Source: Yuukianura sp. NJ FZ-2021 (lineage: Eukaryota). Taken from it: DNA of 64,000 nucleotides. The notes beneath the pieces are model-generated. The model saw nothing but the letters and a program-made list of their open reading frames with translations, was not told the origin of the DNA and ran no database searches. The stretch is from assembly GCA_046563655.1 (NCBI GenBank), contig CM102285.1, positions 1,054,001-1,118,000 on the forward strand, given 5' to 3'. A program made the position numbers and the translations under genes. Below are positions 28,709 to 62,804 of the stretch, piece by piece; the stretch's first letter is position 1, and each line of letters starts with the position of its first letter.

Positions 28709-31235
28709 TTATGTTTTTGGAGTTGGAGAGATTTGGATGAGGGGTTTGGCCATGCCAAGCTTTCCGTCAGCAAACAGAGCAAAAGCCTCGTTGATGGAAT
28801 CTACCGGAAAAGATTTTGATGGAATCGTTCTGAAGGCGCCAGATTCAAATTTCGGAACAAGTTCGCGCCAAATCTCCGTCATTTGACCTTTAGCCTCTGT
28901 GCTAAAGTTCAAGACAGAGTAAGTTACGTCTGGACGCAAAGAGTGGACGTAGTCTTGTGTCCAGTGTCCAGCTGGAGCAATGTCCACGAACATTCCATTC
29001 TCAGCGCACAAATTCAAACTTGGTTTTTTAAGATACTCAACTTCGAAGTTGTTAACGACGACAGTTAGACCTTGGCCCTTGGTGTCCCGCATTATTTCCG
29101 AAGCAAAGTCCATGCAACTAGTGAGGTCATAGATATGTTTGACCCCAGCTGATCTCAGATACTCCGTGCGTTCTTGACTACCCGACAGCGCGAACACTTC
29201 GGCTCCAAAAAGGCGGGAAATTTCAATCAGCGGAATTCCAATCCATCCTCGGCTGAGATTGACTAAGATTCGAGCTGGTTCGGCCCCACCGGAATGTTTG
29301 AGTCCCGCCAAACCCACGAGAGCGTGCCACGCAATGGTGTAAGAAAGTGGAACAGAAGCTGCGGTGGGGAGACTTAAAGTTGGTGGTACTTTGGCCAGCA
29401 TTTGTTGCGATACTTTCAGACGAGACGCCAGTGCTCCGCCGTCCAAGCACATTCCATAGACACGGTCTTCGGGCAACACCGTAGTTACAGCAGAACCAAC
29501 ATTTCGAACGATCCCGCTGAAATCAAATCCGAGTTTCCCGCCGTTTCCGGCATCCAGAATTCCTTTGTCTTTGTAGTTCAGTGAACAGAACGTTATGTCC
29601 ACCTCCACTTCTCCAGAATCTAGAGCTTCCATATCGCTGCAATATTTAAAAAAAACTTGTGAAGTTCAAAGTTAAGTTAATAACTGTAATCGTTAATTGT
29701 AATTGGTTGAATTACTTTTGAATTTCCCGCGATAACTTTCCCGGTGACGAAGCTTGGAAGTAGAAGTTAGCTGGACCGTGGCCAGTGTTAGCCAGAAGCC
29801 AAGCGTTCCAGTTGACCTTTAACCCCTCAACGCTGAGCAATTTCAGACAATTTAGCAGCGATTCTACTTCGTCCACTGATTCCTCCGTGAAGTAAAACAC
29901 TTTCGGTGGATTAGCTTCAAAATTCCTTGCAATAAGGTTCTTCAGTCGCGGTGTTGGCCCAATTTCAATCAAAATCCGGTTTTTCTAGAGAAAAAAAACA
30001 AAGAAAAAAAGTAAAAAACTTATGTCTAAGTTACAGGGTCGGATTTAAGCACAAAAGGTGCTGTAACATGGTAGCTCAATGGCGACAAGCCTATCCCGGA
30101 ATTGTACTGCTATGAGTTCGAGTCCCACTCCAAGCACGTATTATTCCTCACTCTTTCTTGTAATATACAATCGGTGAAAACCTACTGTGCATCGATTTCA
30201 ATTTGAAGCAAATTTGATTTGAAAAATTCAAAAAAGTTGGAATTTTTCAAAGTTCAAAATTTTTAGTTCCAACCTGCGCCACTAGGTGGATGGCCTTCGC
30301 AAAGTGAATCCGATTTCGCGTAAGTGCTGCCCAGTACTTTGGTGTGACCTCCACCATCTTTTCGCCAGTAGAACTCGAAATGTACGTCAGTTTTGGTGTG
30401 AAATGCGGTACTGTTGCAGCTATAGTGTCCAAGTCTTCCAAAATGGGATCCATGTGACTCATATGATAAGCATATGGAACGGAACCTTTTAAGCGTAAGT
30501 ACTGAACTCCGGTAGAAGCACAGTACCGCTCGAAAGCTTCTATCCGTTCAAACGTATCTCCGACACCGACACTCTCCGGGGCATTGATCACTGCAATTTC
30601 AGGCCCGCTTCCAGCTCCATTCAACTTTTCAAAATCAGCGATCAGCTGGGTCACTTTTTCAAAATTTGCCTTCAGCGCGGTGAAACATCCTCTGACGACT
30701 TTGGATTTTAATAACTTGGCTCTCTCCACAACGAGTTTCATTCCTCCTTCAACTGATAGAACTCCAGAAGTCACCGCTGCGGCATACTCACCTTGAAAAA
30801 AAGTGTGCCAAAAGTCGCCAAAATTTCAAAAATATGTTTAATTTACATTTAGTTTTGAAACTTACCGAAAGAGTGTCCGAGGACAACGGAAGGCTGGATG
30901 CCAAATTCTTTCAAAAGCTGAACCATGGCTACTTGGATACCGAAAATTCCTGGACAGCTGATTTCCGGATCTTCGAATACAGCTGACGGGTCCCACATCA
31001 TCGCTTGAAGCGATTTGCCAGTCAACTTGTGATGGATTTCTTCAACAGTATCCAACGCTGCTGCAAATGCTGGAATAGTTTCGTACAACCTCTTGCCCAT
31101 TCCATGATACTGAGATGCTTGCGGACTAAAAAGAAATACCACCTCCAAATCTAAACAAAAAATGAAATAATTTTAAAAATTCAAAAAATTCTAACGAAAA
31201 TTTTCGTAAAATTTTGGTTTTGACTAACCTTCCAT
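28709..31235 (-). CDS. Stand-alone PKS/FAS-type acyltransferase + MDR enoylreductase didomain protein, ~5 exons
   Basis: ME(D)LEVVFLFSPQASQYHGMG, GHSFG|EYAAA, PYAYH, IEIGP (AT domain); then EVEVDITFCSLNYKD, GFDFSGIV, AASVPLSYTIAWHAL, TKGQGLTVVVN (ER domain); no KS/ACP/KR exons on either side. Confidence 0.85.
30070..30129 (+). mobile_element. tRNA-derived SINE-like head, intronic
   Basis: GGTAGCTCAATGG (A box) and GAGTTCGAGTCCCACT (B box); flanks resemble the 5054 copy (GTGC..TAAC before, CACTCTTT after). Confidence 0.5.
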
Positions 31236-48610: not shown

Positions 48611-50194
48611 TTAGCTTTTTCTTCTGTAAATCAAATCGAGTAGTTCTTTAACTGGTTTGCGCAGTGGTTCTGGCTGAATCACTTGAATTCTTTTCAAAAT
48701 CCTGTCGTACTCCTTCACTTCAAACCTTTGAAAAACACGCTTCATGTTCAGCGTTTTGTAAATCGCTTGGACTTTTTCAACATTTCCTTCCTTGGGTGAT
48801 CCGTAGCTCTCTTGCAGAATGGCTTTCTGTTCCAGTGTGGCTCTCTCCAGTGCTTCCACGATCATCCAACTGCACTTTCCATCTAGGATGTCCGTCCCCA
48901 CCTTCCCAGTGACCTTGGGGTCACCGTAAAGATCCAAATAGTCGTCCTGGATTTGGAACAAACGACCAATATCCACCAAAACGTCCTTCACCTTCTCATA
49001 TGTCGCTGTATCGCTGACTCCACCCTGCAACAAAAAAGAACGGGAAATGTTGAACAACGCCGTAAAAGTTAAAAAGTTAAAAGTTAGATAATTGAAAGAT
49101 AAAACAGTGAAAAAGTTACAAGCTAAAAAGTTGACAGTGAAAAGATGAAAAGTAAAAAAAGGACAAAAAGTTAAGTTAAAATTTAAAACGTTAAAAATTA
49201 AAAGTTGAAGAGTTAAAAGTTAGAAGCTAAAAGCTAAAAGCTAAAAGCTAAAAGTTGAAAGTTGAGAGCTAAAAGCTAAGGGCCAAAAGCTAAAAGTTAA
49301 AAGTTGACATGTTAAAAGATAAAGTTAAAACTTGGAAACGAGAGTTGAAAAAGTTTTCACTTACGAGGATCATGCCGAGGGCGACTGGGCAACAGAAGGA
49401 GTAGATGCTAGTTTTGTACTTGACAATTGTGTCGTATGTGGAACGAGTGAACCTGAAAGTTGATTTAAAAAGTTGACCTTTGACCTATGACTTTTGACCT
49501 TTGACCTGTGAAACTGACCTGGCAAAGTCTGGGAGGATGCTGAATCGCGTGTCCAGTGCTTGTCCAAGGATAGTGACGAGCATCGTATCTTGACACATGA
49601 CCATGAAACTTTCGTAGAACTCCGTGTCAAAGAAATACTTCCGAATCAAGCGCCACGCAATATTCTGCAGCAGCAAAACGTCGTTGATTGCCGACAAACC
49701 GACGTCTGCACGCATGTACCACGCCGGTTTCCCGCGGCGCACTGTAGATCCATCCATGATATCATCAGCAATGAGGGCAGAGGTGTGAAACTTTAGAATT
49801 TCAAAAAAAAACCTTCAAAATGTCCATTTGGTTCAAAATTTTGAAAAAGTTGAAAAATTAGACTCACAATTTCTGAAACCCAACCGGCGACGCAAACCAA
49901 GAAGTCCATTTCTGGTGAGCGCTCTTTTAGACTTCTGTATACGACCGTGATAGCAACAGCTCTGATGAAAAAATTTCAAAAAATGTTTAAAATTTTGAAA
50001 AATTTCAAATTTTTTTTGAAAACGAACCTGCTCTGTTTTCCAAACGGAACATTCAACTCCATCACGGTTTCCAACCAGCCCATGATTGCTCCCAATTCTG
50101 AAAATTGTTCGTCTGTTTTCAAATCAACCAAAATCTTTTTCCAAACCACCATCAACTCCTTCCGCATAGCGTCGGTATCTGTAAAATTACTCAT
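48611..50194 (-). CDS. FPPS-like trans-isoprenyl diphosphate synthase, copy 1 (5 exons, 344 aa)
   Basis: Exons 50194-50028, 49961-49868, 49790-49519, 49452-49365, 49024-48611; FARM DDIMD..RRGKPAWY, GQALD, KYKT, SARM QIQDDYLD, GKVGTDI.DGKCSW. Confidence 0.92.
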
Positions 50195-51357
50195 TTTTTT
50201 TCAAAATTCAAAATTTTCAAAAAAGAACTTTTTTTTTATTGAGGAAGTTTTAGTAAACACTTAATGTAAAGATTGTTGAGCAAGACTGAAGCGTCCGGTT
50301 GAACTGAGATCCAGTTTTATTCCGCATGGCCCATGGTCAACCTCTTAATGATTGGGGAATCCCACAAATTTAAAATGACCCGCGCATGCGCGGCAACACT
50401 AAAAATTATTGTCCACTGCTGGAACAAAACAAGAAAACATTCTCAAGAGAAGGGGAAAAACGACTTCACATGCAAATCCCCCCATATCATAATGAAAATC
50501 ACACACATAAAAACAAGTTTTTATAAAACAGGAAAAATTCTTTCCAAAATTTTATTTTCATTGGATTTTCTCGTTTTTAAAAAAAAACGACAGTGCTAAA
50601 CAGAAAGAAAAAGGCGTAACCTCACCCCGTCACTTCCTCTGAACGTCACTATTCATACAAACCCGGGATTTTGAAATTGACAGTTTTTCAAAAACATATA
50701 ATTTTTATAATTGTTACAAATGTGAAAATGTTAAAACCGTAAGAGAAGACGTACGATAAATTCTGAATAACAAGTTGAAAGTTGACGTCATTATGAATGA
50801 ACCAGTTCTCTTGCGTTTACAATGCTAAATTTTTCTTAGAAATTTATAAATGCGTAGGTTTCAAAAACTTCAAAAACATTTTTTTTACAAAACCATGAAT
50901 AAGAATACTTGCAGTAGAAAACTTAGCGGCAACTCTACTGCAGAGAAAGAATTGACCTCTGGTGACCGTTGACCTCTGGTGACCTTTGACCTCTGGTGAC
51001 CTAGTGTTGATATGCTTAGTAGACTCCGGTTTGTTTGTAAAATTTTTTAATTAATGTAAATTGACTACCGAACTAAATTAAAACTGAGTATAGAGATGAG
51101 TTAATTAATTGACCTAGCTAAATTTTAAATTATGGAAAGACTGGTCCACAAAATTGGTTATAAAATTTTATCGTGTGAACCTGCTGTGCTTGCCGAATTC
51201 CAGCAAATTCCCAAAAGCGAATTCGACAGCATGAGAATTTAAGCTCTAGCTAGTTGGTGATTTTGATTCCCAAGGGCTCTTTGTTGAAGTTTTTTCAAAA
51301 GTTTTTGGTTTTAGTTCAGTTTTACGACTTTTTAAATACCTTTTTTAGTTAAACTGT

Positions 51358-52734
51358 TTAACTTTTTCTTCTGTAAATCAAATCGAGTAGTTCTTTAACT
51401 GGTTTGCGCAGTGGTTCTGGCTGAATCACTTGAATTCTTTTTAAAATCCGATCGTACTCCTTCACTTCAAACCTTTGAAAAACACGCTTCATGTTCAGCG
51501 TCTTGTAAATCGCTTGCACTTTTTCGACATTTCCTTCTTTGGGTGATCCGTAGCTCTCTTGCAGAATGGCTTTCTGTTCCAGTGTGGCTCTCTCCAGTGC
51601 TTCCACGATCATCCAACTGCACTTTCCATCCAGGATGTCCGTCCCCACCTTCCCAGTGACCTTGGGATCACCGTAAAGATCCAAATAGTCGTCCTGGATT
51701 TGGAACAACCGACCAATATCCACCAAAACGTCCTTCACCTTCTCATAAGTCCCTGTGTCGCTTACTCCACCCTGCAACAACAAGAAGGGAAAATGTTGAA
51801 CAACGCCGTAAAAGTTAAAACTTAAAATGTTAAGAGTCAGAAACCTAAAATTTAAGAGTTACAAAGTTGAAAACGGGAGTTAAAACAGTTTTCACTTACG
51901 AGTATCATGCCGATGGCGACTGGGCAGCAGAAGGAGTAGATGCTAGTTTTGTATTTGACCAAGGTGTCGTATGTAGAACGAGTGAATCTGGAAGTTAGTT
52001 AAAAAAAGTTGACCTTTGACCTTTGACCTTTGACCTTTGACCAGTAAAACTAACCTGGAAATGTCAGGGATGATGCTGAATCGAGTGTCCAATGCTTGGC
52101 CAAGAATGGTGACGATCACCGTGTCCTGACACAAGACCATAAAACTTTCGTAGAATTCCGTGTCAAAGAAATACTTGCGAATCATGCGCCACGCAATATT
52201 CTGCAGCATCAAAACGTCGTTGATTGCTGACATGCCGACGTCTGCACGCATGTACCACGCCGGTTTCCCTCGGCGAACTGTGGATCCATCCATGATATCA
52301 TCAGCCATGAGGGCAGAGGTGTGAAACTTTAGAATTTCAAAAAAAAAAACTTCAAAATGTCCATTTGGTTCAAAATTTCGAAAAAGTTAAAGACTTGAAC
52401 TCACAATTTCTGCAATCCAACCGGCTACAGATACCAGAAAATCCATGTCGGGTGTACGCTCTTTGGCTAGACTTCTGTATACAACCGTGATTGCAATAGC
52501 TCTGATCCAAAAATTTCAAAAAATTTTAAAAATTTTGAAAAATTTCAATTTTTTTTTGAAAACGAACCTGCTTTGTTTTCCAAACGGAACGTTCAACTCC
52601 ATCACAGTTTCCAACCAGCCCATGATTGCTCCTAATTCAGATAATTGTTCGTCTGTTTTCAAATCAACTAAAATCTTTTTCCAAACCACCATCAACTCCT
52701 TCCGCATAGCGTCGGTATCCGTGAAATTACTCAT
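51358..52734 (-). CDS. FPPS-like trans-isoprenyl diphosphate synthase, copy 2 (tandem duplicate)
   Basis: Same exon structure and near-identical protein; HTSALMADDIMD, QIQDDYLD. Confidence 0.92.
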
Positions 52735-54093
52735 GTTGTTTTTTTTTCAAAATTGAAATTTCAAAAAAAAAATTTTGTTTGGTCGAGGAAGTTATAGTAA
52801 ACACGTAATGTAAGGCTTGTTGAGCAGGACTGAAGCGTGCGATTGAACCGAGATCCAGTTTTATTTCGCATGGTTCATGGTTAACCTCCTAAATTGCTGA
52901 GGAATCCCACGAAATTCAAACGCCAGCGTGATCCCCAGTACTTAATACGATTGTTGACTACTGGAATAAATAACGCATTCACTCGCGAAGGAATCCCCCA
53001 TATCTTCTTGAAAATCTCAGAAGTTTTGCTGCATGCTTAAATTGCCACTTCCAATGGATGTCCACTGGATGAAATGTGTTCCAAATGGACGAAAGTGTAA
53101 GTGGATGGAAGAAATAAAAGCTTTAGTGCGAAACTACAAATTTAAAATTCCCAAATAACATCAAAAAGCTTTTCTCTCATCGCACGTATAATTATTCAAA
53201 ACGTATTCAAAAACGATATATATTGAGTTTACAAACAACCAAAAGTGAGTAAAATTTAGTAACTAAAAAAGTACACCCAAAAATCAGTTCAGTAGTCTTT
53301 CCAACGTAAGAAATGTACAAATACAAAACAGTGGCAATTGCAAAACACTGGGATTAGCAAATTACCTGACATGGAGGTGCAATTGACATTGCAAAATGTC
53401 CCATTTGCTATTTCATGTTTCATTTTATCAATTTACCGCCAAGCTGAGCATGGGAGGGATCTGTTTTGTTTACATTCATGTTGTCAAAAATGGCGTATAA
53501 AGGAAAATATACTATGTATTTGGAAAATTACGGTAATACGGTTCAAGTTTTGCATTTCTCAATTGCCATTGTTTTGTACTTTGTACAATTTCTTAAGTTG
53601 GAGAGACTACTGTAATTTGTTTAATTTCGCAACTGAAAAGAAGGGAACACCAATGAAATAACGTGAGTTGCAAAAATTCCAGCATAAAAAGCTCCGCTCA
53701 TGTGGATTAATCCATTTCGTCCATTTCTTCCACTGGATATTCAGCCGTGGATGAAATGGCGAAACAGTGGATTATCCAAAAACAAATCGCACGTAAACAA
53801 CAAGTTTTTATAAACACGAAAAATTCTCTCCAAACTTTTTATTTTCAATGGAGCTCACTTTTTTGCTTTAGTAAAATAACATATAATTAAAATCCTAACC
53901 TAAGCAATCTGACAAAAATCTGCGTGTTAGAAGCAAAGAGAAGCTATTTTCCTTGAGATGCGCAAACGAGACCCGCCTTTGCTTGAGTTCTGTTGCGTCT
54001 GTGCAGTTTTTGTATTCGCTATTCGCAGCGGCAACTGCCATTGTTAGTGGATGTGTTTCTTCTTTCAAAATCAAAAAGTCAGGATTAGGCGTC

Positions 54094-54186
54094 GATCCAA
54101 ATAGTCGTCTGGATTTGGAACAACCGACCAATGTCTACCAACACGTCCTTCACTTTCTCATATGTCGCTGCGTCGCTCACTCCACC
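54094..54186 (-). pseudogene. Fragment of a third FPPS-like copy (start of last exon plus preceding intron repeats)
   Basis: Matches 48931-49024 with a 1-bp deletion at QDD; AAAAGTT intron repeats follow at ~54220-54300. Confidence 0.85.
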
Positions 54187-55391
54187 CTGGAACAAAAAAG
54201 AAAGGGAAATGATGAACAAAAAAAAGTTAAAAGTTGAAAAGCTAAAAAAGTTAAACAGAGTTAAGTCGAAACTTGGAATTTAAAAGTTAAATAGTTGAAA
54301 GATGATTTACAGTTAAGGTTGTTTTGTATATGGTTTGTTCAGACAAACCATAACCCAATATGCATTTTCTTCATAAGTTTAAGTTGATACGAAGAAGTGA
54401 AGAAGCTCTCACTTCTTTTTGATTGGTAAATTCGATTAATTAAAACAAATAATCATTTACATCAACTATCGATTCATTTTTGGCTACTCAATATTTGATT
54501 AACGGATTCGAACAGGCTGTTGAGTAGTCCATTTAGACAAGTTATCGATAATACAATAGCCATTATAATGAACTTTTTTGCAAACCGAAATATTTCAATC
54601 GTGTTCCCTTCATAGTTGCGAAATCAAACAAATAACTGGTTTTTGGTTGCACTCTTTTAGCTGGGTCTCGTACATCTGAAAATCTTTTTGGGGTACAAAT
54701 TATTGTGGTCGAAAGATATTACAGCTCGTATTCTTACTACTTTTATGTTATATGTTGGACAGTCAACAACAATCATAGTTTTTCAATTGCAACATAAAGT
54801 AATATATATGCAGATTTTTGAATATGCAGAAGATATGCAGAAAAAAATTTGCGCGGTAATTCAAAATTCACGAAACCTACCATGAAACTAACGTATGCTC
54901 GAACATAACTCCAAAAGAAGCACATAAAAACTTACATCGGTTTAAAACGTAAACCATTTGGCTCAAAACAAATTGGTTAAAAAATGTTAGTTCAGCGGTT
55001 GCATTTTTGTTTCTGGGGTCAGGCAACTTTTTCTGAAATTTTTCTAAGTTTTTTTTTCTTCGCCAAAAAATTAGTTTTAGGAAGTTGTCTTAGACAAAAA
55101 GCAAATAAGCTAACGTTAAACACTATTGGTTTTCCATTTTTTGTGTTAATTAAAAACCCATCTGACGTCATTTAAAAAAAAAACAAAAATTTGATTAAAC
55201 TTGATTAATTCCGAATTTTTGTTTTATAGGTTGTCGAGTTCGTGTGGGAGAAAGAAAAATTCTCTTCTCGCGTAATAGTGGCAGAGACGAATGGGATTTT
55301 TTTTTGCTTTAACGTAAATCTATATAAAGCATGCATCAATATATGCAGATTCAAATAAGACGAACAGTAGTTGGTTTAACTGTCTAACATT

Positions 55392-55940
55392 ATATGTTTG
55401 ACTCAATTGTTTAGGGGTATTCCTACAGTTATCCTAGACATCCTAGGATTTCTACTGTAAATTTTTTGTAGCAGTACCAATTTTGGTTTACCGACAAATT
55501 TTAGCTCGGACCCAGCCCCCTGCAAATGGCGCCCATAGCAACCAACGCAATTTTTGTTTGTGACGTCACCCGCTGAAAAAATACCGTAATCGTCAAATTG
55601 GAACCCGCTGGCATTTATGTAAACAAGATGTGTCTTACGGGTTTCTATAGGACACCACCAATAATTGGCAGAATTCCGGTATTTTCAGCGGGTGACGACT
55701 TTTTTTTTTCCACATGGCAACCAAACAAACTTTCCATTCGCACTACCTAGTAGTATTCTATTTACCTTGGCTCGGACCTAGTTTTGTTAAAAACTTTACA
55801 AAAGGGCAAAATTTTTACCCCCACAAAGGCAATACTTCCTTAGCTTCAAACGCCGCGAAGCATATAATAGCCTCCTCTGGTTTAAACGTTCTGGAAAATT
55901 GAACGTTGATTTAGTAAGATACAAATTCCGAACCGAACTT
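55392..55940 (+). pseudogene. 5' fragment of WS/DGAT-like gene (duplicate of 61114-61392), disrupted
   Basis: Clear nucleotide match; ATG changed to ATA, in-frame TAA, indels and a 257-bp insertion; upstream ~54750-55390 matches ~60248-61113. Confidence 0.88.
55513..55769 (+). mobile_element. 257-bp element with 9-bp TSD and no terminal inverted repeats, copy A
   Basis: TSD GCTCGGACC at 55504-55512 and 55770-55778; reverse-complement copy at 60302-60556. Confidence 0.85.
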
Positions 55941-56053: not shown

Positions 56054-57793
56054 ATGAGCAACACTAAAACTACGGAGTGTGTGCCGCGGAAAAGGTGAGC
56101 TTTTTTTAAACTACAGATAATACATATTTCTAACCATAATTTTTTGAACTTTGGTTTCGGAGCTCTATTTGCAGTTTGTGTGTACAAAATTTTCCAAAAA
56201 AAAAATGTTTCTAGATTAATTGAATTTGCTCCGCTTTGGATTCCTTTGTCAAGGCGCTTGGAAACTGTAATGAAAATAGTTTATGTAATTTAAAACTATA
56301 TATTTATATAAATTTATTATAATAATTATTACAACTAATTCCAGTTTGGCGTTGCGTGGTTGCCGTTAATTTGGTTTCTTCCTGTTCTTGGTCCTCTTCT
56401 GCTTATTTACGTACTACTGTACACCAGCTACTGGTGTTTCGGACTTGCCTACATCATTTGGATGATTTATGATAGTAACATTGCGAAACTGGGTGGACGG
56501 AAGTACAAAACATTTTTAAAATTTTGAATTTTTTTTTTGAAAAAGGTAAAAAAAATTTTTTTTTTGTTTGAAAGGTTTTACTTTTTGCGGAACTTGATAC
56601 TGTGGAAATGGTACTGCAATTACTTTCCAATTCGGTTAGTGAAAACGGCGGAATTAGACCCATCCAGGAACTACGTCCTGACGTGCCACCCCCATGGAAT
56701 GTTTTGTTCCGGCAAGAGCACCTTTTTTTTTTGAAAATCTTGTAAAATTTTGAAATTTTTGGGACCTAACCTAATTTCTGTAAAATGTAAAAGGTATGCA
56801 CGGAAATTTTTCTTCCGAGGGTACCAACGTCAGTCAAGTTTTCCCTGGAATCAAAATAACCTTTCTAGCGCTTGACTTATTTTTTCGAATTCCAGTATTT
56901 CGTGATGTCGTACTAGCGTGTGGTACCATTAAATTTCAAGTTCAAATCAAATCTTAATATAAAGATAACTTTTGAAATTCACTATTTGCAGGTGGATGTT
57001 CCGTATCGCGGGAAGGTATAAATTTTCTGTTGAGTAAAAACGGCGTCGGAAATGGTGTGTTAATTGTACCTGGGGGAGCTCGTGAAAGTTAGTAACTGCA
57101 ACTTTGAAAAAATCTTCTAAAACCTTTTCCAAAATTTTGTTTTCTAAGATATTTAAAAATTCTAAGACTACCTACGACTTTTTTAAACTTAAGTTTTGTA
57201 ACATGTCTATGTAGTGCTTTACTCTTCTCCCGGAACAGACATCGTTTACCTGAAAAAACGAAAAGGATTTATCAAGGTCGCTATTCAACATGGGTACGTT
57301 AGCCAAATGAAAGTTTTTGAAAATTTGAACATTCTAAAAGTTCCTGCAAGACCCAAAATCAAAATCTTGAATTTCAGAGCTCCACTAGTACCAATTTACA
57401 GTTTTGGTGAAACCGACATTTACTCCCAACCGCATAACCCGAAGAGATCTTGGCTTAGGAATTTCCAGGATAAATGCACAGATCTGTTCGGGGGAGCGCC
57501 ACCTTTGGTTTTAGGCAGAGGAATTTTTCAGTATTCATTTGGATTTCTTCCAAGACGTTGTCCAATTACTTCAGTCGGTAGGATTTTCGGAAAATATAAT
57601 CAAAATTTTGAAAAATCATATTCAAAATTTCCATTTTTCAGTCGGTGCACCAATCCCTGTGGAGCTGCAAGCCAATCCGAACCAAGAATATATTGACGAA
57701 GTTCATGCCAAGTACATGTCTGCACTCACAGATTTGTTCTACGCCTATCGTGGCAAATACGGCCATGCAGACTCAGAGCTCGTCATCATTTGA
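56054..57793 (+). CDS. DGAT2/MOGAT-family acyltransferase, multi-exon
   Basis: [74 protein letters not shown]; one GC-AG intron at ~56712. Confidence 0.92.
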
Positions 57794-58162
57794 AGTTTCT
57801 AATTTTAAATTTGACGTTTTGTTCAAACTAGAGCTTATTCTTAAAATGTATACCATCAAATCAATTTGAAGCAAGCTCGAAGCGCTATCTCTTGATAGAT
57901 TGTCTAAGTGTGACTAAAAAAAGCAGCGATTTACATTTTCAAAGTTCTGTTTAAACTTGCTCGTTATTTTTGTCGTAAAACTATGCATGTGCGGACAAAT
58001 TTCCGCAAAATAAATATTAGAACGTGAGCAAAAATTTCATAAAAAAAAGATAAATTTTCAAAAAAATTATCAATATAAAATTTAAAAAAACAACCTTCTA
58101 CACCATTATGTTTTCACGCAATATCTCTTCCCAATATATCTCAGAGATATCTAATAGGTTGT

Positions 58163-59130
58163 GAAAAGGTTGCAAGACGCACTACTCTGCATCCAAAGCC
58201 ATTTGGCAGCAAACCGACAACCGGCGACAAACTTTCAAAATGGCACTACGAAAACCTTGTGCAAAAAGATGGGTTCCGAACTGAATCGTACCGTCGGCGT
58301 ATTGACTGGAAGGACTGCAAATACAATTCAGACCTTTACTATCACTTATATGCATCAGAAAAGGAACTTGAATTGCGACGGTCAGAAGAAAGCTACTACT
58401 TGTACAGAATTGCTTCGTTGATTGGCACAACGTCGTTTTCCCTCCAAAAAATGTTTCACTCAAACTGTATGACGCTCACGATGGATCCATATACCAAAAA
58501 TTTGTCGCTTATGCTAGATTCACATTACAAAGCAACTCGCAGACTTTATGCTAGTTGCATGTTGTCACAGTTTTCTGCTTTTTGCGAGTTGCGTGTTCAC
58601 ACTGGGCCTTTTCTCGAGGCCCGAATGATAAGGAAAGTCGCGGGCAGACGGTTCAAAGGACGCACATCAAAAGTCGCCTTCATATGTGAACGCTTTCACT
58701 TCGGGAATAGGGGAAGACATGCAGTTTCTGCCTTTCAGCTTCGTTTGACGAAGCTCACAAAATCTTGTCTGCGCAACCCTTTTGGAGCAGATTTTCTGCC
58801 GCAGTTTTGTGAGTGTGAACAGCAGCCACAACTCCTTTCGGCAGAAAAAGCTGCCCGCAACTTTTGATAAAATTTTCTGCACATTCCAATCTCTAGTGTG
58901 AACGCGCATCAGCAAAGACCACCCAGAATTCGAGCAGAAATCTGCGAGTTGCGGTGTGATGTGAATCCAGGATTATGTCAACAACAGTCAATGTCACGCT
59001 GACGTCAGTCTCAATGTTGTCCGTGGATATCGTAAACGGTAATGGAATGCGAAAGGGCTTTGACATAACCAACCGAATGTTCCTTTGGCATGGAACAAAA
59101 CGCAGAAACATAGCGAAAATACTGAATTCA
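58163..59130 (+). pseudogene. PARP/ART catalytic-domain-like pseudogene fragment interrupted by a MITE
   Basis: Removing 58512-58972 plus one TTA joins ORF 58259 to ORF 58975 in frame, giving NRMFLWHGTKRRNIAKIL (PARP HG motif); truncated after ~59130. Confidence 0.6.
58512..58972. mobile_element. PIF/Harbinger (Tourist-like) MITE, 461 bp
   Basis: TIRs TGCTAGATTCACATTACAAAGCAACTCGCAGA / TCCTGGATTCACATCACACCGCAACTCGCAGA; TTA TSD at 58509-58511 and 58973-58975. Confidence 0.82.
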
Positions 59131-59144
59131 CAAACTTTTTATTC

Positions 59145-60133
59145 ACGAGTTTTAGTAAACACTAAATGTACATAGTGTTGAATAGGACTGTAGCCTCCGG
59201 TTGAATTGCGGTCCAGCTTTATTGCGCATGGCCCTTGGTCAACCTCTTAATGTTCGGGAAATGAATCCCACGAAATTCAAACCACTGGCGCAGGCTCGCC
59301 TGACCTAAAGTCTCCTCAACAAAACATTCAAAAAGGAAGTGGGAAAATGACTCGCAAATATTTCACCTAGCACAATGAGAATCACAAGTGTTGCTGCAAG
59401 CTTTAACCTCCAGTGGCTTCACCGCGACTTCCAATGGACATCCACTGGAAGAAATGTGCCCTCAAATGGACAAAACTGTTAGTGGATAGAAGACATAAAA
59501 GATGTAACGGGAAATTCAAAAAAAAACATTCATTTAAAAAATATCAATTTAAAATTACTAAATGATATCAAAAAATCTTTCTTTCACCGTGAACATTAAC
59601 TAATTATTTAAAACTTATTTAAAAACGTATATATTTCGTTTTTTAATATATTTTCATTCTTCTCAGCCGATTGTATTTAAATAATTTATTGTCCGCGGGC
59701 AAAGCTCTGCTTCTTTGGATTCATCTGTTGGTCCTATTTCTTTTACTGTACACCCAACTGAGGATGAAATGTCGTAAAAGTGGATATCCAGCAACATTGA
59801 AAATCACACATACGTAAGTTTGGTAAAAAAAAAAAGGAAAAAAAAACTCTCCTAAATTTTATCTTCATTGCATCTCATTTTCTACAACGAAAAAATGACT
59901 GCCCCGCGTGCGCAGGTACACAGTTGGTAAGATAAATTTTAGATAACAAAGTTAAACAAGGTTGCTATAGCAACGGAATTGTTTTGCTTTAATGTTGAAG
60001 AAAAACTATTTTATTGTTTACAAACCTTGAAAGTTGAAAGTTGACGTAATTTGAAGGAAAAAGTTCTTGCGACAGCAGGAAAAGACGTAAACTACCCCGT
60101 CACTTCCCTCGAACGTCAGAATTCACACAAACC
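59145..60133 (-). repeat. Orphan third copy of the FPPS-like gene upstream region
   Basis: TAGTAAACAC..CCAGCTTTATTGCGCATGG..GGTCAACCTCTTAATG..AATCCCACGAAATTC matches 50250-50400 and 52785-52930; CCCCGTCACTTCC block matches ~50625. Confidence 0.8.
59961..59974. promoter_or_regulatory. Perfect palindromic X-box (RFX-type site)
   Basis: GTTGCTATAGCAAC. Confidence 0.4.
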
Positions 60134-60556: not shown

Positions 60557-61113
60557 AGGTATATGCAGGTTTTCAAAAACTTTCGCGGTAATTCAATATT
60601 CATAAGTTTCCTCCCATGAAACCAACGTATGCGCAAACATAGGTCCAAAAGAAGCTCACAAATACTTACATCGGCTTAAAATGTAAACCAATTGGTTCAA
60701 GACAAAATGGTTAAAAAATGTTAGTTTAGCTGTTGCATTTTTGTTGGGGTCAGGCAACTTTTTCTGAAATTTTTCTAAGTTTTTTTTTCGCCAAATTAGT
60801 TTTAAGAAGTTGTCTTGGTAGACGAAAAGCTAAAATCGAACGTTAAACACATGTGTTTTCCACATTTTTTGTTAATTAAAAACCTAACTGACGTCATTTA
60901 AAAAAAAACAAGAATTTTAACTTGATTAATTTTGAATTTTCGTTTTATAGTTTGTCGAATTCCTGTGGGAGAAAGAAAAATTTCCTTCTCTCGTAATAGC
61001 GTCAGAGAAGTATGGCAATTTTTTTTTGCTTTAACGTAAATCTATATAAAGCATGCATCAATATATGAAGATTCAAATAAGACCAATAATTGGTTTGTTA
61101 ACTGTCTTTCATT

Positions 61114-62804
61114 ATGTGTCTGAATCACTTTTTTAGGAGTATTCTAACAGTTATCCTAGGCATACTAGGATTTCTACTGTTAATTTTTGTAGCAGTACCA
61201 ATTTTGGTTTACCGACAAATTTTAGCCAATGTCGCACCTTGTTTTGTGAAAAACTTAGGCAAAATTTTACCCCCACAAAGCCAATACTTCCTTAGTTTCA
61301 AACGCCGCGAAACATATAATATCCTCATCTGGTTTAAACTTTCTGGAAAATTGAACGTTGATTTAGTAAGAGACAAATTCCGAACCGAACTTCTTTTCGT
61401 CCGGAATGACTCGGGTGACTTCGTTTATTCCGAATTGCAGCAATATCCAACTATGTTTGGTGGATATGCCTTCTGGAAGTGGGAGGAGTCATTCGACCTG
61501 GACAAACACATTCACCACATGACTTTGGACCAAGAGGCTGACGCTCATGCGCAGTTTGAGCGGATGCTCCAGACTCCTCTTCCTGAAAAAATGAGTCCGT
61601 GGGAAACGACATTTTTGGAGTTTGGCGATAACCCAGATTGTCATTTCATTTGTTTCAAATTTCACCACAGTTTGTGTGATGGTGAAGCAATTTTTGATGC
61701 TCTGATGCGTATGACGGACTCAGAGCCTCATCGACTACAGTTTCCAAAAGAACCACGAGGTTCATGTTTTGGTTTTTTCTGCACCATTTTTTATTTCATC
61801 AGTTCATATTTCAATAAAATTTACGATTTCACTGACACAGCGCCAATGATTTTCGACGGTTCAAATCTTACCGGAGTAAGACGTTTTCCAATGTCAAGGT
61901 CATTTTACCTGCGTCAAGCGAAACAGTTGAGGTCAAAGGTCACCGTGTCCGTGTCCATGACGATGCTGGGAGTTCTCACAGGAGCCATTCGAAGAAAACT
62001 TGAAAATGAGGGAAAGTCAATTCCAAAGCTCATGCGCTGCCTGATTCCAATTTCGGCGCCAAGCCACCCGAAAAAATTGACGAACAAAGTGTACCTAAGT
62101 TCAAATTCTGATACAAAATTTGAAACTTTATTTTTTATTGTAACTTTAAATATTTTATCACACTTTTATTTTTTAGGTTGATGGTTGACTTGGCGCTACC
62201 AGTTGACGCTGCGAGTGGGTACCAACGTTTGGCGTTGCTCGAACGCCAAGCACAGAAGGAACGCATTGTCAAGTCGAGTTTGGTGACATATTTGTTATTT
62301 CTTCTGAATGCTTCCATGCCAAAATGCTGGATGGTTCCAGTTCTTCCAGTAAACACAATACTTGCAAGTATATTTCCCGGACCAACAGAGCAATTTTATG
62401 TTGGTGGAAACCCTGTGGAGGATATGGCGTACGCTTTGAATGGTGGAACTCATGGTACATATTTTTATAATGCATGCATTTTTATTAAAGCATCTAACCT
62501 AAAATAGTAAAAGGGTTAGGTTATGTAATTATTATGTATATATATAGTGTCATGTCTAAGCGATATAACAACAATATATAACATGTACCAGAATATATAT
62601 AACTAGAGCATATCTAAAGAATCAGAAATACTTTGTTTAATAGCACTGATTGTGAACATTTGTTCGTACAATGGAAACTTTCGATACTGGCTGGGAGTCG
62701 ATGCTAAAATTTCCTCAACAGAACAAAACGCAGAGGAATTTGTTCAATACCTTGGCGATGAACTTCATGAGCTAATCAAATCAGAGTCTAATGTGACTGT
62801 TTAA
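61114..62804 (+). CDS. Wax-ester synthase/DGAT-like (HHxxxDG) O-acyltransferase, 3 exons
   Basis: N-terminal TM segment, FDLDKHIH, PEKMSPWE, FKFHHSLCDG, LTNK, SIFPGP; last exon 62644-62804 (..ICSYNGNFR..). Confidence 0.82.

Follow-up and report, generated by a model that had tools for sequence, protein, structure and literature searches.

Two FPPS-family genes in tandem

We analysed a 64,000-nucleotide stretch of contig CM102285.1 of the springtail Yuukianura sp. NJ FZ-2021 (positions 1,054,001 to 1,118,000; hereafter the window, whose own coordinates are used unless stated otherwise). It carries two adjacent genes of the farnesyl diphosphate synthase (FPPS) family, copies A and B. Canonical FPPS have one or two aromatic residues at positions -5 and -4 before the first aspartate-rich motif (DDxxD), whereas both copies have Ser and Ala. 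The features of the two genes are:

51358..52734, minus strand: copy A, FPPS-family gene of 345 aa (exons 52734-52568, 52501-52405, 52326-52055, 51987-51900, 51771-51358)
52312..52317, minus strand: Ser/Ala codons of copy A at -5/-4 of the first DDxxD, which runs from 52302; Phe at -8 and His at -7
51679..51693, minus strand: second Asp-rich motif of copy A, intact
48611..50194, minus strand: copy B, FPPS-family gene of 344 aa (exons 50194-50028, 49961-49868, 49790-49519, 49452-49365, 49024-48611)
49776..49781, minus strand: Ser/Ala codons of copy B at -5/-4 of the first DDxxD, which runs from 49766
48932..48946, minus strand: second Asp-rich motif of copy B, intact

Each copy has five exons, the eight introns of the pair are all bounded by GT-AG (8/8), and both frames are free of stops. 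The Ser/Ala codons lie directly past the phase-0 intron that opens exon 3, and Ala occupies -1 as well as -4 in both copies. An earlier note on this DNA, made from the letters alone, had described Ser/Ala at -5/-4 with both DDxxD, the RRG and the KT motifs intact, and this holds for A and B. It had also seen no N-terminal extension. Stops lie in frame 5 codons (A) and 3 codons (B) ahead of the ATG, which bears this out for exon 1; a further exon upstream of exon 1 is possible in either copy. Such a loss is uncommon: neither -5 nor -4 is aromatic in 37 of the 437 parsable homologues (461 collected, with two of the queries being themselves small-residue proteins).

Other prenyl synthase genes in the genome

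A profile search with PF00348 in the 98.7-Mb genome, where the window lies on a 15.3-Mb contig, gave 21 matches, and all candidates were scored (18/18). These matches correspond to nine loci, i.e. A, B, five more of the FPPS family, one GGPPS-like (geranylgeranyl diphosphate synthase) and one PDSS1-like, plus a bacterial-looking contig. The labels GGPPS-like and PDSS1-like are our assumption, based on motifs that we take to be typical of these enzymes. A second search, with a divergent relative as query, found no additional FPPS-family locus in the genome; the counts from both searches are lower bounds. Three of the five further loci are canonical FPPS genes (L024-L026), with Tyr/Leu, Tyr/Phe and Tyr/Phe at -5/-4, and the closest named matches of one of them are from Folsomia candida and Orchesella cincta. 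The other two are divergent paralogues:

L027:2959-4942, minus strand: paralogue with a Cys/Ala pair, as in the TPT of Eucommia
L028:3085-4500, plus strand: paralogue with a Ser/Tyr pair

We also noted an intron-free, transcript-like sequence (P0209) that is 91% identical to L027.

Copies A and B are 38-41% identical to the canonical FPPS of the genome. The earlier note had argued that they are not housekeeping FPPS, and had named the search for a canonical FPPS elsewhere as a check. The three genes L024-L026 answer that check, and together with the position of A and B outside their clade (see below) they support the argument. The contrary case, in which A and B would be the only FPPS genes, is removed by the five other FPPS-family genes, three of them canonical. 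Nor do the copies belong to the PDSS subfamily. The match of copy A to the PDSS1-like locus L023 is limited to 29 aa (E = 7e-5), versus E = 4e-73 for the FPPS locus L024, and both copies are nested within FPPS in the tree. A, B, L023 and the polyprenyl synthase of the bacterial-looking contig (L022) all have His at -7 followed by small residues at -5/-4; given the tree, this shared pattern with PDSS-type loci is convergent.

A clade of FPPS paralogues

We inferred one tree from 66 rows hand-picked from 316 proteins (LG+G4) and another from a hand-picked 33-row subset under a C20 site-mixture model. Copies A and B group with L027, L028 and five unnamed proteins from soil contigs of 1.1-1.4 kb in a clade of nine rows (support 100/98 with LG+G4, 98 with C20). 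Four Orchesella proteins and one Folsomia protein join them in a wider clade of 14 rows (99/97 with LG+G4, 86 with C20), which is sister to the canonical springtail FPPS (96/94, LG+G4). L024-L026 group with the FPPS of Folsomia, Orchesella and Allacma; A and B do not. The phylogeny, which the earlier note had also proposed as a check, thus sets them apart, in a clade whose FPPS paralogues mostly have small residues. In A, B, L027 and L028 the Arg codon of the GKxxR motif is interrupted by a phase-2 intron, which is absent from the three canonical genes. Judged from these sequences, the small-residue trait extends beyond the tandem pair and characterises an old clade, to which four genes of this genome belong. 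Its -5/-4 pairs (SA, CA, SY, AC, AA and FA) would provide a natural series for the study of chain-length evolution in animal FPPS.

Relatives were also sought in metagenomes, where a scan retained 38 loci out of 234 pattern matches. The patterns favour small residues, so these numbers cannot be read as frequencies. Among the loci, L044 is clearly orthologous to A and B, at 67-68% identity versus 39-47% for the five other genes of the genome. It shares three of the four A/B intron positions. The third intron is missing and the exon 3-4 junction is read through, which supports the exon model of A and B. Among the best 150 of 12474 hits in a search of representative proteins, nothing exceeded 44% identity to A or B, and a search of Atlas clusters with a clade relative as query returned generic FPPS clusters only. 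Relatives nearer to A and B than L044 may exist.

Three other observations concern FPPS paralogues outside this genome. Fourteen of the 38 metagenome loci carry one dataset prefix (L036, L043, L045, L047-L050, L052, L054-L057, L064, L065); among them are many small-residue FPPS paralogues with introns, a hint of large FPPS expansions in some soil arthropods. Loci L067-L070 have several GK-type motifs each and are possibly tandem copies. In Orchesella cincta, P0010 and P0124 lost the -5/-4 aromatics independently, inside the canonical FPPS clade. In the series P0010, P0121 and P0124, one protein retains Phe at -4 and the second Asp-rich motif is altered; the three are possible terpene-synthase candidates.

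Chain elongation or terpene synthesis

We compared the 15 residues that contact isopentenyl diphosphate (IPP), following our reading of Table 1 of PMC10108439 (motifs IBM-1 to IBM-5 and SARM). The contacts are conserved at 98% in insect isoprenyl diphosphate synthases (IDS) and at 10% in terpene synthases (TPS) (Rebholz et al., PMC10108439). Copies A and B retain 14/15, and because of this a chain-elongating enzyme is favoured over a terpene synthase. The insect IDS-type TPS (MhTPS, PsTPS1-4, LlTPS) are also FPPS-derived paralogues with non-aromatic -5/-4 residues, but they lose most IPP contacts: 3/15 are kept in the sandfly LlTPS and 4/15 in PsTPS1 (PMC10962984). A and B thus share with these enzymes the non-aromatic pair (PMC6140472) and not the substitution of IPP contacts. 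Their one changed contact, Gln to His, lies within the published expression. We rejected it as a mark of terpene synthases, since it is present in Anopheles (mosquito) and Dendroctonus (bark beetle) proteins named FPPS.

Length of the product

A longer-chain prenyl synthase is our best reading of A and B, and we consider it fairly probable that they are FPPS-derived synthases of C20-or-longer prenyl diphosphates. They would be cytosolic trans-isoprenyl diphosphate synthases that condense IPP with an allylic diphosphate and elongate past C15. Replacement of the aromatic floor by Ser/Ala would deepen the allylic pocket and bring the product to C20 or longer. This product would then feed specialised terpenes, via microbial-type terpene synthases or the neighbouring cis-prenyltransferase described below, and not core metabolism. 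The differing -5/-4 pairs among the paralogues would tune differing chain lengths. As for A and B themselves, C20-C25 is our tentative first choice, and C30 or longer is possible with somewhat lower confidence.

FPPS-derived longer-chain synthases are already known from mutants and from Eucommia. The F112A/F113S variant of chicken FPPS (1UBX) makes lengthened products, below C50 (PMC7887238); it has Ala/Ser at -5/-4 and, like A and B, Phe at -8. The F95M/F96S change (FF to MS) turned a stink-bug FPPS into a GGPP synthase (PMC6140472). Both variants have small residues at the same two positions as A and B. They are laboratory mutants, whereas A and B are natural, are about 40% identical to canonical FPPS and have further changes in helices E and F. 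A further parallel would be EuTPT1/3/5 of Eucommia ulmoides. Like A and B, these are natural FPPS paralogues without targeting signal that have lost both aromatics, and canonical FPPS is retained alongside. They have Cys-Ala at the two positions, make polyisoprene and do not rescue the loss of yeast FPS (PMC7887238). A small-small pair in an FPPS paralogue is what A and B have, and Cys-Ala itself is found in L027. The Eucommia enzymes differ by their plant lineage and independent origin. They have six-residue insertions and an altered TPT-type dimer with a central tunnel. Canonical FPPS (chicken 1FPS, Folsomia P0003, Orchesella P0009) share with A and B the PF00348 domain, both DDxxD motifs, 14/15 IPP contacts and intron positions; they differ by their aromatic floor, and A and B stand in a separate clade with the GKxxR intron. 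In the three-floor model of plant enzymes, what limits products beyond C20 are residues that lie deeper, on helices D, E and F (PMC8553974).

Several observations weigh against a longer-chain synthase. GGPPS-like and PDSS1-like genes are already present in the genome, and a new enzyme is therefore not needed for C20 or C45-C50 chains. Some branches in the clade are long, e.g. 0.99, and attraction may inflate support, which makes the wider 14-row group probable rather than certain. The orthologue L044 agrees with A and B in His at -7 and Ala at -4 but carries Phe instead of Ser at -5 and Met instead of Phe at -8. Hence, floor residues vary inside the A/B orthogroup. A one-turn shift of the aromatic floor between L044 and A/B is possible, and Phe at -8 may have taken over as the floor, limiting product length. 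This Phe is also found in 21/400 aromatic-floor proteins and in the chicken enzyme, yet it swaps with Phe at -5 in L044. PcIDS1 of the leaf beetle Phaedon cochleariae, with Ser/Leu at -5/-4, makes only GPP and FPP (C10 and C15; PMC10396970), so small residues there are insufficient for long chains; together with the Phe of L044, this implies that the -5/-4 motif does not fix chain length. A and B also match fewer full motif expressions (3/8 vs 5-6/8 for the canonical FPPS of the genome) and, within IBM-1 to IBM-4, differ at positions that do not contact IPP. The residue after RRG is Ala in both, versus Cys in 47/47 aromatic-floor sequences, and replacement of this Cys by Lys inactivated a stink-bug FPPS (PMC6140472).

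These observations bear on the alternatives. A short-chain enzyme making GPP/FPP, whose regulation or double-bond geometry would be altered and which would supply C10/C15 substrates to the terpene synthases of the genome, is unlikely. PcIDS1 is a precedent: it belongs to the FPPS family of an arthropod and has both Ser at -5 and an intact IPP site. Another enzyme of this family, from a flea beetle, is a cis-IDS (PMC6140472). The aromatic kept at -5 in L044 and the Phe at -8 of A and B fit the same idea. However, PcIDS1 sits among insect FPPS in the tree, outside the A/B clade, and what caps its product length is the pair of Leu at -4 and Met at -1 (PMC10396970), both of which are Ala in A and B. 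Phe at -8 does not keep the chicken mutant from elongating further, and three canonical FPPS genes are already available. The earlier note had also entertained a neofunctionalised terpene synthase. An IDS-type or bifunctional IDS/TPS enzyme, which would ionise FPP, GGPP or GFPP (geranylfarnesyl diphosphate) and free a hydrocarbon or alcohol, seems distinctly improbable to us, since 14/15 IPP contacts are kept versus about 10% conservation in characterised insect TPS. Springtails are moreover plentifully supplied with microbial-type TPS genes (277 in 21/26 genomes; PMC13638087). What speaks for such an enzyme is that the non-aromatic pair is typical of insect IDS-type TPS and required for MhTPS activity (PMC6140472), that the TPS of the leafhopper Empoasca retains all consensus IPP residues except one (PMC10108439), and that A and B combine the deviations in IBM-1 to IBM-4, the lost Cys and the 0.99 branch. 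Least likely is irregular coupling (head-to-middle prenylation leading to branched terpenes, e.g. viaticene or nitidane) or a subunit working only as a heterodimer with another paralogue. Springtails do make branched prenylated terpenes, FPPS-derived irregular-coupling enzymes exist in plants, and four divergent paralogues coexist in the genome; yet no sequence feature of A and B points to irregular coupling, and they have a complete IPP site and two complete metal motifs.

Divergence and origin of the two copies

A and B are 93.9% identical, with a dS of 0.30, a dN of 0.026 and a dN/dS of 0.089. This ratio implies that both copies are held by selection: they are intact genes under purifying selection. 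Their differences are concentrated, as the earlier note had remarked, in exons 2-4, which make up 152/344 codons and yet hold 18/20 amino-acid substitutions plus a one-codon indel (binomial p = 3e-5). Polarisation by L044 assigns 8 substitutions to A and 5 to B as derived changes, and leaves 7 without a direction. Positive selection between the copies is unsupported (pN ~0.05 vs pS ~0.31 in exons 2-4). Synonymous changes are fewer in exon 5 (Fisher p = 0.016), perhaps as a result of partial gene conversion.

We rejected an assembly artefact as the source of the pair, given the dS of 0.30 and the contigs from run X5 of a second study, which cover exons 3-5 of B, the region upstream of B, and the spacer with the end of A; no single contig listed for that run bridges both copies. 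Depth over the two genes is several-fold above background. We did not take it as copy number, because joints and loose ends fall at low-complexity intron repeats and the two genome searches, whose counts are lower bounds, gave no further FPPS-family locus.

Conserved elements and remnants of duplication lie around the genes:

50233..50392, minus strand: conserved non-coding element of ~160 bp upstream of B; its counterpart upstream of A starts at ~52790
59136..59298, minus strand: third upstream element, 80% identical to that of B, with no FPPS exon 1 after it
54094..54300, minus strand: broken third FPPS copy, comprising the end of intron 4 and ~30 codons from the start of exon 5, with a frameshift at the second Asp-rich motif and a truncated end
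53890..54065, minus strand: duplicated 3' end of a Ras-family gene, 87% identical to window-equivalent 66440-66608, marking a tandem-duplication junction

The element upstream of A and B is presumably a promoter or 5' untranslated region. A 10-mer common to these elements, chosen from these very copies, occurs 3 times in the window versus 0.29 expected. The element at 59136-59298 would be the remnant of a decayed third copy, which the earlier note does not mention. The broken exon 5 piece abuts the duplicate of the Ras-family gene, which itself lies beyond the window, past the cis-prenyltransferase. From this junction we infer that the array arose through tandem duplication of a segment beside the Ras-family gene.

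Neighbouring genes

Genes upstream of copy A include:

window-equivalent 65405-64575 (L030:1575-2405), minus strand: cis-prenyltransferase (PF01255), bacterial-type, intronless, 276 aa
~56300-57800, plus strand: DGAT2-type gene (PF03982)
61102-62507, plus strand: WS/DGAT gene (PF03007, PF06974)

The cis-prenyltransferase shares the strand of A and lies 11.8 kb upstream of it, with the DGAT2-type and WS/DGAT genes between the two. Its N-terminus has what we take to be a possible lipid-anchor motif. There are about six cis-prenyltransferase loci in the genome, three of which match the family full-length in one piece. The chance of one this close is 0.002-0.009, a rough, after-the-fact estimate, and its proximity to A and B is suggestive only.

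Springtail terpenes

Springtails make C25 terpenes in vitro and carry C35-C45 cuticular terpenes, and higher terpenes such as [7]-[9]-terpenes were found in 16/23 species (PMC11321324). Microbial-type terpene synthases are present in the 21/26 genomes cited above. The springtail cyclase ScTC3 accepts GFPP only, and octaprenyl diphosphate was suggested by the authors as the precursor of poduran (PMC13638087). The main text of that study contains the term 'IDS' 0 times; canonical TPS in springtails are treated in PMC11665903. The published passages ascribe the long terpenes to the ubiquinone pathway without naming the enzyme, and the GFPP synthase is likewise unnamed in them. In the openly accessible main texts on springtail and arthropod prenyl synthases that we searched, we found no description of the A/B clade.

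The genes of this clade are concrete candidates for the precursor synthases of the long terpenes of springtails, and by analogy with this chemistry a cuticular or defensive role of A and B is plausible. If confirmed, an animal FPPS paralogue making medium or long chains would parallel the Eucommia rubber synthases. More speculatively, and with considerable doubt, the C35-C45 cuticular backbones ([7]-[9]-terpenes, poduran, socialane) might come from this ancient lineage of FPPS duplicates acting as chain-length rulers, and not from the ubiquinone pathway. The locus would then be an isoprenoid-lipid gene cluster in which opened-pocket trans-synthases, the cis-prenyltransferase and the two acyltransferases act on the same molecules.

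Other observations

A duplicate of the 5' part of the WS/DGAT region, containing an inverted insert (55513-55769), is found at 54843-55940. A 262-codon open reading frame at 58079-58867 (plus strand) has no Pfam match. Contig depth in run X5 is high over 58630-58970, suggesting a repeat or mobile element. An intron-bearing EgtD-type histidine methyltransferase gene (PF10017; 45489-47325, plus strand) lies 1.3 kb downstream of B, and a gene resembling fatty-acid or polyketide synthases, with acyltransferase and enoyl-reductase-like domains, lies at 28709-31172 (minus strand).

Outside the window, a 511-codon open reading frame beside a canonical FPPS gene (L025:6467-7999, plus strand) encodes an SNTX MACPF/CDC-like domain (PF24674), and L032:7489-8931 is a long tandem array of short units with open frames on the minus strand. 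The L022 contig (233 kb) has an intronless stretch of 47% GC with the bacterial-type polyprenyl synthase and a peptidase-like open reading frame, and is probably from a bacterial symbiont or contaminant.

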